Notes: generated by a model not told the origin, from the letters alone. A stretch of DNA of 64,000 nucleotides from an uncultured Chlamydiales bacterium (GCA_963785335.1 CAWAUW010000002.1:168952-232951); one strand, 5' to 3'; positions 48,998 through 51,544 are shown, counted from the stretch's first letter. Program-made: numbers and translations.

Positions 48998-49993
48998 ATG
49001 CTTATTCTTGGAATTGAAACTACCTGCGATGAAACCTCATGTGCCGTTGTTAAAGATGGCGTTGAAATACTATCTAATGTCATAAGTTCACAAATTGATT
49101 TACATAAAGAATTTGGCGGTGTGGTACCAGAGCTTGCCTGCAGGCGCCATATCGATGTTATTGTACCTGTTTTGCAAGAGGCATTAACTCAGGCTGGCCT
49201 CTGCCTGCAAGATATTGACCAAATAGCAGTAGCAAAGGGTCCTGGCCTTGTTGGAGCGCTTTTAATAGGACTGCATTTTGCCAAATCACTTGCCTGGAGC
49301 CTTGGCATTCCCCTTATTGGGGTAAATCACATTGAGGCGCATTTATATGCCGCGGTTATGTCTCAAAAAAACCCACCGCTTCCAGCACTTGGCGTTGTAC
49401 TATCTGGCGGGCATACAAGCCTTGTAGGCATGCAGCAAATTGGCAACTACACTCTTATCGGCGAAACTATTGACGATGCCATTGGCGAATCTTTTGACAA
49501 AGTTGCCAAAATGCTATCTCTACCATATCCTGGAGGCCCATACATAGAGCAGCAGGCTTTAACAGGCGATCCAGCTCGCTTTGCATTTAAAGCCGGCCGC
49601 GTTAAGGCAAATCCTTTTGATTTTTCATTTAGCGGAATAAAAACATCAGTGCTCTACACAATACGAGATATGCCCAAACCTTTATCTGAGCAGGATATAA
49701 AAGATATATCCGCCTCATTTCAGCAGGCAGTTTTTCATGATGTCATACAAAAAATGCATCTTGCCTTGCAAAGAGATACCTATAAAGCCATTTATATTGG
49801 CGGGGGCGTATCACATAATAAGCGCCTGCGAGAGCTTCTTGCGGGCAAATTCTCTTTACCTATCGTGTGGCCAAGAAATGATCTATGCCTCGATAATGCA
49901 GCCATGATTGCTGGCCTTGGCTTTCATAAAACACCCCTGGACTCATACCATCTTGAACCAGAAACTAGAATTCCATTTTTTCGCATCAAATAA
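48998..49993 (+). CDS. tsaD: tRNA N6-adenosine threonylcarbamoyltransferase
   Basis: ILGIETTCDETS, GVNHIEAHL and SGGHTSL motifs. ATG at 48998. Confidence 0.9.
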   Translation: MLILGIETTCDETSCAVVKDGVEILSNVISSQIDLHKEFGGVVPELACRRHIDVIVPVLQEALTQAGLCLQDIDQIAVAKGPGLVGALLIGLHFAKSLAWSLGIPLIGVNHIEAHLYAAVMSQKNPPLPALGVVLSGGHTSLVGMQQIGNYTLIGETIDDAIGESFDKVAKMLSLPYPGGPYIEQQALTGDPARFAFKAGRVKANPFDFSFSGIKTSVLYTIRDMPKPLSEQDIKDISASFQQAVFHDVIQKMHLALQRDTYKAIYIGGGVSHNKRLRELLAGKFSLPIVWPRNDLCLDNAAMIAGLGFHKTPLDSYHLEPETRIPFFRIK

Positions 49994-50135
49994 CCACCAC
50001 AGAGGCACTGAGCTCACTGAGATATTTGAGAAAAATGAGAAAACTGATTAGCAAATCCGGAGCTTTAAACATCATGACAAGGGATCCTTCTCCCTATCTC
50101 AACTCTCTCAGTGAGCTCAGTGCCTCAGTGGTTAA
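49991..50135. repeat. Palindrome with CACTGAG-word arms (family F4)
   Basis: TAACCACCACAGAGGCACTGAGCTCACTGAGA / TCTCAGTGAGCTCAGTGCCTCAGTGGTTA. Begins at the tsaD stop codon. Confidence 0.8.
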
Positions 50136-50204
50136 TTAATACGTAAAAATCTCTGGAAAGTAAATGATCTCTTTGTCATATAGAGAAAAACTAAGAGGTT
50201 TACT

Positions 50205-50342
50205 ATGGCAAACAGAGACATCATTCTTTCAATCATCGTTCTAGCAGGTATTGGCTGGTTACTTTTCGAAAATTATCATCAGCGGCCGCAAAAAGATCAA
50301 AAGCCTGCCACTATAGAACGCGTGCAGCCGCAAGCAAAATAG
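50205..50342 (+). CDS. Small single-TM protein (45 aa)
   Basis: AAGAGG RBS 7 nt upstream. MANRDIILSIIVLAGIGWLLFENYHQRPQKDQKPATIERVQPQAK. Not in the ORF track because it is under 60 aa. Confidence 0.4.
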   Translation: MANRDIILSIIVLAGIGWLLFENYHQRPQKDQKPATIERVQPQAK

Positions 50343-50414
50343 AAAACTTTCACTTTTAGAAATTTTGCCACTTTGCTACATTGCGTCTTTAGAATTTGCA
50401 AAAACGAGTTTTAT

Positions 50415-50903
50415 ATGAAACAGCAATCGCAAAAGACGCTTGGAATTATCATTGGATGCCTTGTTATTATTGGGGCCATACTCTGCATTGTTCTAGCGGG
50501 ATTTACATCACCTGAAGCAAAGGAAAAAGCCGTGAAAACAGATCTTACAACAACACCATCTGGTCTTCGTTACCAAATCATGAAAGCTGCGCCGCAAGAT
50601 GCCAAAAAGCCAAAATCAGGACAACAAGTTTTTGTGCATTATACAGGTTGGCTATCAAATAATGACCAGGAAGGTCAAAAATTTGACTCAAGTCATGATC
50701 GAAGTGAGCCTTTTGTATTTATTGTTGGTAAAGGCCAGGTAATAAAAGGATGGGATGAGTCTTTGCTTGATATGAAAGTCGGTGAAAAGCGCAGAGTAAT
50801 TATTCCGCCAGCACTTGGCTATGGTGCCCGAGCTATGGGAAAGCTTATCCCTGCAAATTCCACCTTAATATTTGATATTGAATTGCTGCAAGTTTCAAGT
50901 TAG
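50415..50903 (+). CDS. FKBP-type peptidyl-prolyl cis-trans isomerase, membrane-anchored
   Basis: VHYTGWL..G..FDSS, GKGQVIKGWDE and LIFDIELL motifs. N-terminal TM segment. ATG at 50415. Confidence 0.85.
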   Translation: MKQQSQKTLGIIIGCLVIIGAILCIVLAGFTSPEAKEKAVKTDLTTTPSGLRYQIMKAAPQDAKKPKSGQQVFVHYTGWLSNNDQEGQKFDSSHDRSEPFVFIVGKGQVIKGWDESLLDMKVGEKRRVIIPPALGYGARAMGKLIPANSTLIFDIELLQVSS

Positions 50904-51338
50904 CGCTTTCAAAATATTTAGATGCACAACCATTACGGTTGCCGGATCAAATAGAGGCTTTAGGCTAACATCAACCTTATCATCAAAGCAGTATAATGCT
51001 CCCTTGCCATCTGCTTTATCAATTGCGGCACTAATAAGCCCGCCGGGCAGTAGATACAATGCTGCCACGCCGGAAATTGAGCGCGTCAATTGTGCGGTAT
51101 GTTCGTGATAGCCTTCTTTGGAAATTGTAATAACGTGATCTTTTGCTCTAATTATGCGAAAGGTTGCCGGAGTAATGCCTGCTTCAACGCCATTTATAGC
51201 AATATTTGCTCCTGCTGGATCTGAAAGTATAGTTACTTTTTGATCATGGCCATTTATCATGGTTGCACAACTAGTAAACATTAAACAAAGAATTGCGAAA
51301 ATTAAATACACATACACTCCTTGGTAACCAAAGAGCAT
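50895..51338 (-). CDS. PEGA-domain lipoprotein
   Basis: Lipobox LMFTSC. VTILSDPAGANIAINGVEAGITPATF matches the PEGA consensus. Confidence 0.6.
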   Translation of the reverse strand: MLFGYQGVYVYLIFAILCLMFTSCATMINGHDQKVTILSDPAGANIAINGVEAGITPATFRIIRAKDHVITISKEGYHEHTAQLTRSISGVAALYLLPGGLISAAIDKADGKGALYCFDDKVDVSLKPLFDPATVMVVHLNILKALT

Positions 51339-51385
51339 ATAATATTAAATAATTTTATGCAAGGTAATTAAACTTTTTAATTATG

Positions 51386-51544
51386 AGATTTTTTAAACAC
51401 AGAGGCACAGAGAACTCTAGAGGAGAGAGACTTCGTGAAATAAAAAAAATAATACCTTTAGCGAAAGGCAAGAGGCTTTTTAGTTCATGAAGTGTCTCTC
51501 TCTTCTCTCTGTGTTCTCTGTACCTCTGTGTTTAAAAAAATCTC
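51386..51544. repeat. Palindrome with CACAGAG-word arms (family F4)
   Basis: GAGATTTTTTAAACACAGAGGCACAGAGAAC...GTTCTCTGTACCTCTGTGTTTAAAAAAATCTC. Confidence 0.8.

Follow-up and report, generated by a model that had tools for sequence, protein, structure and literature searches.

Two long palindromes stand on either side of three small genes in a 64-kb stretch of DNA from an uncultured Chlamydiales bacterium (GCA_963785335.1 CAWAUW010000002.1:168952-232951; the whole stretch is called the window below). We refer to these palindromes, at 49991-50135 and 51386-51544, as E1 and E2. An earlier interpretation made from the DNA alone (the sequence-only reading) saw palindromes and genes as a single block, in which the arms of each element are built from an iterated heptamer that differs by one consistent base between the two. 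This raises the question of what such palindromes are, how the words within them stay alike, and whether the enclosed genes form a unit. On balance, we favor the view that E1 and E2 are copies of a modular palindromic repeat, dispersed and non-coding, of the kind represented by repetitive extragenic palindromic sequences (REP/REPIN) and miniature inverted-repeat transposable elements (MITEs), spread and homogenized by the mechanism set out in the Discussion. For the cassette idea the outcome in the window is negative; the three genes are not a mobile cassette.

Results

E1 and E2 are related palindromes built from heptamer words

The coordinates and strings that the sequence-only reading gave for E1 and E2 are correct, and the true palindromes reach beyond them (Table 1; the outer limits of E1 are approximate). 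The left arm of E1 reads ATAACC-AC-CACAGAG-G-CACTGAG-CT-CACTGAG, with its terminus at 49990-49995 and its words at 49998-50004, 50006-50012, and 50015-50021; the right arm carries CTCAGTG at 50107-50113, 50116-50122, and 50124-50130 and ends in GGTTAA (50130-50135). The stop codon of tsaD (TAA, 49991-49993) contains the start of the left arm, and the outer stem extends into the last codons of that gene. E2 has the left layout TTAAAC-CACAGAG-G-CACAGAG-AA followed by a degenerate third word (CTCTAGAG), with the terminus at 51393-51398 and the intact words at 51398-51404 and 51406-51412. Its right arm carries CTCTGTG (51507-51513), CTCTGTA (51516-51522), and CTCTGTG (51524-51530) and closes with GTTTAA (51530-51535); in the outermost extension, GAGATTTTTT pairs with AAAAAAATCTC. 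The element lies 5 nt past the stop of an RPE65-like gene on the minus strand and ~47 nt upstream of the start of the PEGA gene.

The T/A difference between the elements had been said to run through every iteration in both arms; it is present in 10 of the 11 intact words, but the first left word of E1 is CACAGAG, the E2 type. Likewise, the description of E2 as about three copies of CACAGAG/CTCTGTG is mostly right, except that one word is degenerate and another ends in A. As RNA, E1 folds with -67.2 kcal/mol (z = -10.2) and E2 with -81.1 kcal/mol (z = -12.1), and for neither was any of 200 shuffles as stable. A strict detector finds five iterated-word palindromes in the window, compared to 0.05 in dinucleotide shuffles. 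When E1 and E2 are aligned to each other, only the arms match and the interiors do not align; the spacing between the second words is 104 nt in both.

The two elements are related beyond low-complexity similarity: a profile hidden Markov model (HMM) of the family, built from 130 arms of other phyla (among the matches listed in the scan described below), matches all four of their arms (E = 3.6e-5 and 1e-3 for E1; 4e-6 and 4.9e-6 for E2). Each also has an inverted partner arm and lies 3' of a gene (0 and 5 nt past the stops), the features that characterize the family. Termini of the TTAAMC type, which the earlier interpretation had pointed out, are seen in E1, in E2, in a third window element with CGCGAAG words (E3, 48722-48910), and in half-elements with GCAGAG words (at 292 and 41984).

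The arms belong to a family found across bacterial phyla

We scanned one genome per species with the pattern TTAAMCRCNGAGGYRCNGAG and obtained at least 120 loci; about 280 chance matches are expected for this pattern in the whole collection by our own calculation, and the counts given here and in later sections are among the matches listed. Even so, nearly all of the listed matches have features beyond those that the pattern specifies. The carriers fall in Planctomycetota, Verrucomicrobiota, Acidobacteriota, Bacteroidota, Chloroflexota, cyanobacteria, Nitrospirota, and Gemmatimonadota, with others in several proteobacterial classes, a Negativicute, and a Chlamydiae metagenome-assembled genome (MAG). 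A third word that the pattern does not require follows after a spacer of A, GA, or AA plus C in 104 of 130 arms, and 73 of 131 arms have an inverted partner (at least 15 of 20 matches, within 420 nt). Identical 28-nt arms (TTAACCACAGAGGCACAGAGACACAGAG) occur in Acidobacteriota, Planctomycetota, and Betaproteobacteria.

A looser pattern applied to viral contigs recovered a high-GC copy with GCCGAG words (L029, TTAACCGCCGAGGCGCCGAGACGCCGAG...CCTCGGCGGTTAA), and we judged about 35 of 58 viral-contig matches to be real; when any base was permitted at the R positions, real copies still showed A or G only. A few unannotated copies lie in plasmids of Anabaena, Calothrix, Nostoc, sphingomonads, and Thiodictyon. 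There were no family members in 420 kb of unrelated soil contigs, used as a control, nor in E. coli complete genomes or GenBank phages. Judged by these sequence matches, the range of the family takes in many phyla of diderm bacteria as well as viral contigs. On L013 (3756-3775), a viral contig, an arm lies within the first codons of a phage open reading frame (ORF; MTEELTAEAQRTQS...), with a second, inverted arm 2.1 kb away.

Each arm consists of a terminal tag, T-T/G-N-A-C/A-C (most often TTAACC), and two to five tandem words of the form C-R-C-N-G-A-G spaced 1-3 nt apart; the second arm is the reverse complement of the first. Arms are conserved over 28-45 nt, with 95% arm-to-arm agreement at the R position, and the inter-word spacers are conserved as well (GC after word 1; A, GA, or AA plus C after word 2). 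Within the word, C1, C3, G5, A6, and G7 are fixed across phyla and across genomes of 35-70% GC; the variable letters do not track genome GC, and no GC amelioration was seen. At the end that the scan pattern leaves free (n = 73), the tag is TTAACC in 18 elements, TTCACC in 13, TGAACC in 7, and TTTACC in 6, which marks ACC as its constant part.

Elements measure 58-425 nt. Pairs of copies within 8 kb of each other in one genome (L087, L091) share their arms and 6-10 nt outside the tag, and their centers are unrelated. The conserved unit is the arm; the center is hypervariable and may contain additional modules or different hairpins. Modules built from other words (CGCCAAG, CGCAAAG, CACGAAT, CACAGAT) are nested in modules with GAG words, and solo arms stand in tandem arrays at two loci (L055, L120). 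At a further locus (L132, 3534-5178), two arms with the rare combination ACAGAG-GC-ACAGAG-GAC-GCAGAG lie 1.6 kb apart around the gene for a 507-aa membrane protein, so an entire gene can lie in the center of an element. In L137 (minus strand, near position 2935), an 8-nt unit of word plus spacer (GCTGAGGT) is repeated at least seven times right after a TTAAAC tag, in the manner of a microsatellite.

Words are alike within elements

We measured word uniformity in 65 elements, taking both arms together. Identity within an element is 0.966 for the R letter (0.541 when permuted) and 0.642 for the N letter (0.507 when permuted), and none of 1000 permutations reached either value. The N letter is uniform in 16 of the 53 elements with at least five words; 12 of these are all-A and 4 all-G, where about 0.04 all-G elements are expected. 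There are also many mixed-word elements, such as the one in the Chlamydiae MAG (L122), and words with T are usually non-uniform elsewhere. These results show a statistical uniformity of words within elements: the consistency first noticed in E1 and E2 persists in the larger sample as a tendency, not as a rule.

The sole close relative of the window, a 1.6-kb contig with 98% TsaD identity (L175), carries E1 at the corresponding site; its left arm has CACTGAG three times, including at the word where the window has CACAGAG. The two copies of E1 differ by eight substitutions within 22 nt around the left tag and by a 38-nt insertion in the center. At the E3 site, every word in both arms is CGCAAAG/CTTTGCG in the relative and CGCGAAG/CTTCGCG in the window; the layout is kept, including a truncated third word, and the center differs. 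This pattern points to homogenization within the element, or to rapid replacement at the same spot. The sequence-only reading had held that each element was generated or homogenized from its own word and not by drift from a common copy. Homogenization within an element is reasonable because of the permutation result, the all-words difference in the close relative, and the existence of long word arrays. In contrast, the near-identity of the arm template in different phyla means that the elements share a common origin and did not each arise from a word of their own.

The three genes are an old syntenic core

The homologs of the window's TsaD come from environmental chlamydia-like bacteria of the Planctomycetes-Verrucomicrobia-Chlamydiae (PVC) group, and the gene content of the window agrees with this placement (ankyrin, PP2C, and tyrosine-phosphatase domains; large orphan proteins). 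The genes reported between the palindromes are as described, with FKBP_C and PEGA domains and TsaD encoded upstream, but they do not form a unit. In relatives at 79-85% TsaD identity (L176, L177-L179, L260-L264), the order is tsaD, 45-aa membrane protein, FKBP, PEGA, with spacers of 50-76 nt and no palindromes. Local exceptions are L260, which has no FKBP gene, and L264, where the 45-aa gene is not called although its frame is visible; genes outside this core vary between relatives. No family arms or iterated-word palindromes occur in 62 kb from these relatives, whereas the 1.6-kb contig at 98% identity has two and the 64-kb window five.

Because these relatives keep the genes without the palindromes, the block is not a cassette but a long-standing syntenic core; the palindromes were added recently in the lineage of the window and bracket the genes only incidentally. 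E1 and E2 sit in the 3' intergenic DNA of ordinary genes, unconnected with the three genes as a unit, and the family has expanded recently in this chlamydia-like lineage as a lineage-specific gain. For the E2 site, a metagenome scan with the RPE65 fragment gave no orthologs above 60% identity; the loci it recovered provided the control set, in which no family members occur.

Three relatives without E1 (L260, L261, L177) carry TTAA(A/G)CC within 10 nt of the tsaD stop (GAAAATTAAACC, GAATTTTAAGCC, GAACTTTAAGCC). This motif resembles the tag of the elements, and could be a preferred entry site or a chance occurrence in AT-rich DNA. At the position of E3, between the PPDK_N gene and tsaD, a relative has a PemK-type toxin-antitoxin pair (L262 374-966; L261 118-710), which suggests that the intergenic site upstream of tsaD is a recurrent insertion point.

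Elements mostly follow stop codons and show no target-site duplication

Where an ORF of at least 100 codons reads into an element, the arm starts between -4 and +30 nt from the stop codon in most measurable cases. The gene contexts are tandem (23), convergent (8), and divergent (4). Family-wide, the flanks are A-rich on the upstream side (37% A over 12 nt) and T-rich on the downstream side (36% T over 12 nt); within 10 nt past the right end, 24 of 67 elements have at least five T and 6 at least five A. This is the layout of a bidirectional terminator. A simple terminator scan did not call E1, E2, or E3. Rfam 15 gives no match in the window at the gathering threshold, and searches of the window region and seven carrier loci at E-value thresholds returned only miRNA-hairpin matches far below threshold.

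The TTAA terminus had suggested a target-site duplication of that sequence, and this is not borne out: the free end is TTAACC in only 18 of the 73 cases given above, and direct repeats do not exceed chance at boundary offsets 0-6, at any length, or within 28 nt outside the termini. The elements lack a target-site duplication. Inverted 6-8-mers, on the other hand, are in excess in the flanks (11 7-mers observed, 2.7 expected), showing that the palindrome often runs past the conserved tag.

Other repeats and genes in the window

The features of the window that bear on E1 and E2 are collected in Table 1.

Table 1. Palindromes, solo arms, and genes in and around the E1-E2 interval.
Feature	Position	Strand	Remarks
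E1, full palindrome	49975..50155 (core 49991-50135)	no strand	inverted repeat with 36-nt arms, 92% complementary
E2	51385..51544	no strand	inverted repeat, paired along nearly its whole length
E3	48722..48910	no strand	CGCGAAG / CTTCGCG words; termini TTCACC / GGTTAA
Hairpin nested in E3 center	48761..48869	no strand	39-nt arms, 95%; words ATCGTTCTT / AAGAACGAT
Solo arm (half-element)	292..334	+	TTAACCGCAGAG..CCGAG..GCAGAG..ACAGAG; weak profile match, E = 0.14
Solo arm (half-element)	41984..42025	+	TTAACCGCAGAG..CCGAGG..CCGAGG; profile E = 0.12
tsaD	48953..49993	+	PF00814, 8.5e-88; annotated orthologs begin later than this TTG
45-aa small membrane-protein gene	50205..50342	+	same-size ortholog called in L176, L177-L179, L260-L263
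FKBP-type peptidyl-prolyl isomerase gene	50415..50903	+	PF00254, 4.4e-35
PEGA-domain protein gene	50895..51338	-	PF08308, 4.7e-12
RPE65-type carotenoid oxygenase gene, C-terminal part	51550..52524	-	PF03055, 2e-79; stop abuts E2

E3 lies between the stop of the PPDK_N-domain gene (48699) and the start of tsaD, ~22 nt past that stop, and folds as DNA with -59.8 kcal/mol (z = -11.6). The profile of GAG-word arms does not match E3, so its place in the family is assigned from architecture only. The hairpin nested in its center is bounded by T7 and A7 runs and is unrelated to the words of E3 itself. One solo arm (292-334) sits within another word hairpin (253-381, ATCGTT words); the other (41984-42025) lies 16 nt past the stop of the gene at 40603-41967. 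Over the whole window, the profile found nothing else convincing beyond these four arms in E1 and E2. Each of the window copies is located 0-24 nt past a stop codon.

Iterated-word hairpins with other words are found at 253-381, 21356-21468, 48761-48869, and 42511-42637, built from ATCGTT(C)TT/AACGAT and GATCTT/AAGATC. They are edged by T- and A-runs; one is nested in E3, and one encloses the GCAGAG solo arm. An unrelated second family of long palindromes has at least five copies, all intergenic (7299-7431, 29810-30117, 32463-32689, 42209-42411, 55668-55833), built on CTGGAGTGCGG(N)CCGCTCTTAATTT...CCAC with a small internal hairpin and with arms of up to 97 nt at 85-98% complementarity. A repeat cluster at 61559-61842 has GGGCTATAAAAGCCCGGGCAGCGCCCTGG and CAGGCCTTCAGCCTGCAA in both orientations, and a separate palindrome with 79-nt arms follows at 62417-62583; a CCCTGC-type palindrome that resembles the repeats of this region is also found in the relative L177 (6525-6764). 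Between convergent genes at 14203-14389, nested palindromes carrying GCGCCGGAAGGTGCAAA motifs have 51-nt outer arms (92% complementarity) around a 38-nt perfect-center palindrome.

The RPE65-type gene next to E2 is split into overlapping minus-strand ORFs (51550-52524 and 52481-52978; 324 and 165 aa), where L176 has a single 474-aa gene; the split may reflect a frameshift, a pseudogene, or a sequencing error. Several window ORFs of 750-1750 aa have no Pfam match, a content typical of amoeba-associated chlamydiae, and there are two paralogous genes for AAA_14 plus DUF4143 ATPases (8912-10351, 27099-28349).

Discussion

How a dispersed palindromic repeat could account for E1 and E2

We consider it somewhat more probable than not that E1 and E2 are copies of a dispersed modular repeat; its mode of spread, the process that homogenizes it, and its effect at 3' ends are what we infer from the patterns above. 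Copies would spread in trans, without duplicating the target, and would tend to come to rest where inverted symmetry already exists, for instance at the apex of a terminator or hairpin that closely follows a stop codon. Such spread would be closer to single-strand hairpin mobilization of the REP/REPIN type than to cut-and-paste transposition. After arrival, the tandem words and both arms would evolve in concert: slippage between words, together with template switching between arms paired in shifted registers, would copy changes from word to word and could yield the one-base difference that distinguishes E1 from E2 and separates orthologous copies. The centers of the palindromes would turn over quickly. 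Each copy would be transcribed as a very stable 3'-end hairpin, probably blocking read-through or exonucleases.

Several observations weigh against this explanation. No transposase or Y1 gene was found by Pfam among 46 window ORFs, and an all-against-all BLASTP of 2187 ORFs at the 120 carrier loci listed revealed no enriched mobilizing family; the only recurring neighbors are response regulators and kinases, ABC ATPases, and ECF sigma factors. Alignments to four relatives yielded no exact filled-versus-empty junction for E1, because the intergenic DNA of the relatives is too diverged. Unrelated centers within one genome are unusual for amplified mobile elements, and the slippage and template-switching steps are read from patterns only. 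Solo arms make up 58 of the 131, so the functional unit may be something other than the hairpin. At the RNA level, fold energies show no bias between sense and antisense (37 orientable elements, p = 0.58), which leaves no positive sign of selection on the RNA, and the window copies reverse the family's flanks, with T-runs before the stem and A-runs after it in E1, E2, and E3, and no U-tract. Finally, a selfish element alone hardly accounts for 28-nt arms that are near-identical in different phyla; this identity may mean that a conserved host factor reads the words.

A wider proposal, which we put forward as a possibility only, is that the family represents an undescribed class of "foldback" repeats present in most diderm phyla and some phages. 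Its arms would be read by a conserved protein or mobilized as single-strand hairpins, and it would enter at the apices of hairpins or terminators without duplication. Unrelated DNA, even a gene, could come to lie between the arms, and an active templated process would keep the words uniform.

Alternative explanations

The main rival, which we think rather unlikely, is that the arms are a host-functional motif. Under this view, a conserved oligomeric factor that binds RNA or single-stranded DNA would recognize the GAG-word arm, in which GAG recurs every 8 nt, or the CUC complement, and the hairpin would be a regulated 3'-end device (bidirectional terminator, antiterminator, or stabilizer) kept by selection. 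The five fixed word positions, held across phyla whatever the genome GC, are what such a motif would look like, as is the position immediately past stop codons between A-rich and T-rich flanks. Solo arms are common and follow genes more often in the sense orientation (13 versus 5), elements occur in viral contigs as well, and no transposase is linked to them. However, the orthologous intergenic regions of close relatives dispense with the element, and copy number is lineage-specific; the family is absent from E. coli complete genomes. The words themselves are base-paired and hidden in the hairpin, which folds without strand bias and lacks a U-tract in the window copies, and no candidate factor is known.

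Classical MITEs are an improbable answer. In that case, the arms would be terminal inverted repeats of a DDE transposase encoded elsewhere, inserting at and duplicating TTAA. Conserved arms around a variable interior fit this, many copies do end in TTAA, relatives carry TTAA(A/G)CC just past the tsaD stop where the window has E1, and the arms at L132 flank a gene as two arms of one element. The ends argue otherwise: TTAACC makes up only the minority of free ends noted above, direct repeats are missing at any offset or length, and inverted symmetry runs on into unique flanks. Centers are unrelated within a genome, and about 0.9 Mb of sequence flanking the loci revealed no autonomous partner, its long-range arm pairs enclosing ordinary genes.

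It is very improbable that the palindromes formed independently in place, each from a local seed extended by slippage and fold-back synthesis, without shared ancestry and with a merely compositional resemblance between copies. Long word runs do exist, palindromes extend into unique flanks including coding sequence, and the same window has word hairpins with unrelated words. Yet the identity of the 28-nt arms between phyla contradicts this as a full explanation, and the conserved spacers and the specific match of the profile to E1 and E2 speak against it too. Hardly credible at all are recombination sites (integron attC-like or Xer-type) delimiting a three-gene cassette: the termini bear a loose resemblance to the attC core (..YYAAC / GTTRR..), the enclosed genes are small, and the L132 pair flanks one gene, but synteny contradicts the idea, since tsaD directly adjoins the small genes in relatives, and moreover the genes lie on both strands, the window holds no integrase, each arm has three 7-nt words and not R/L boxes, and the elements stand between housekeeping genes throughout.

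Comparison with known systems

Extragenic palindromic repeats are a known kind; the family itself is absent from Rfam 15, from two REP surveys, in which no sequences match it, and from full-text searches. Searching full texts for exact 12-15-mers of the arm returned nothing relevant, only lone 13-mers in unrelated papers, literature outside that search not being covered; keyword searches (TTAACC inverted repeats, MITEs, heptameric-repeat hairpins, small dispersed repeats) were likewise without relevant results. The family's taxa are outside the coverage of a stem-loop survey, and a paper on intrastrand triplexes concerns a different motif.

Cyanobacterial STRR heptamer repeats and small dispersed repeats share some features with the family: STRR are intergenic tandem heptamers, and small elements can be nested in repeats or hairpins. 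The STRR words differ (e.g., CCCCAGT), have no tag-plus-word inverted arms, and are confined to cyanobacteria. Eukaryotic Foldback (FB) transposons have long inverted arms of short tandem subrepeats and a variable or absent middle, at kilobase scale and with target duplications. Their likeness to the family is architectural only, and would lie in the subrepeat arms, the variable middle, and arms that may flank unrelated DNA, as at L132. Like intrinsic (bidirectional) terminators, the elements place a stable stem right after a stop between A-rich 5' and T-rich 3' flanks; unlike them, they have 25-70 bp stems with conserved sequence, and in the window copies the T-run precedes the stem and the A-run follows it.

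Bacterial MITEs such as Correia elements (NEMIS, Neisseria) and ERIC are similar in being 100-160 bp, non-coding, and intergenic, with terminal inverted repeats of roughly 25-30 bp, co-transcription with neighbors, and hairpin formation. Correia elements, however, duplicate TA and share their whole sequence between copies, whereas the present family shows no duplication, unrelated centers, symmetry that runs into the flanks, and nested modules.

REP, BIME, and REPIN sequences, which RAYT Y1 transposases mobilize, resemble the family in several respects. They are extragenic, reach high copy numbers, and are found singly, in inverted pairs that fold into long hairpins, and in tandem clusters; they too lack target-site duplication, lie at the 3' ends of genes, vary in copy number by lineage, and have been proposed to protect mRNA 3' ends and to act in termination. 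Each REP unit is palindromic by itself, 20-40 nt long, and tagged with GTAG or CGTC (PMC3733652). In contrast, a single arm here is not self-complementary but purine-rich, made of tandem heptamer words with a TTNACC tag. No RAYT gene, which the repeats usually flank in REP systems, turned up in the 64-kb window, nor do the 120 loci listed have an enriched protein family nearby.

In practical terms, the elements form very stable hairpins in 3' untranslated regions that annotation pipelines ignore, and they break assemblies; the contig of the close relative ends inside one. Word-built arms also offer a natural readout of concerted evolution inside a palindrome, by slippage and template switching. 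What separates the family from those described is the cross-phylum identity of its arms, their construction from words, nesting, and free centers. In descriptions to date, REP, BIME, ERIC, and Correia elements are restricted to particular lineages, and REP families to a species or genus, whereas the 28-nt arm is nearly unchanged from Acidobacteriota to Planctomycetota, cyanobacteria, and Chlamydiae, which points to a conserved reading factor or to unusually promiscuous spread.

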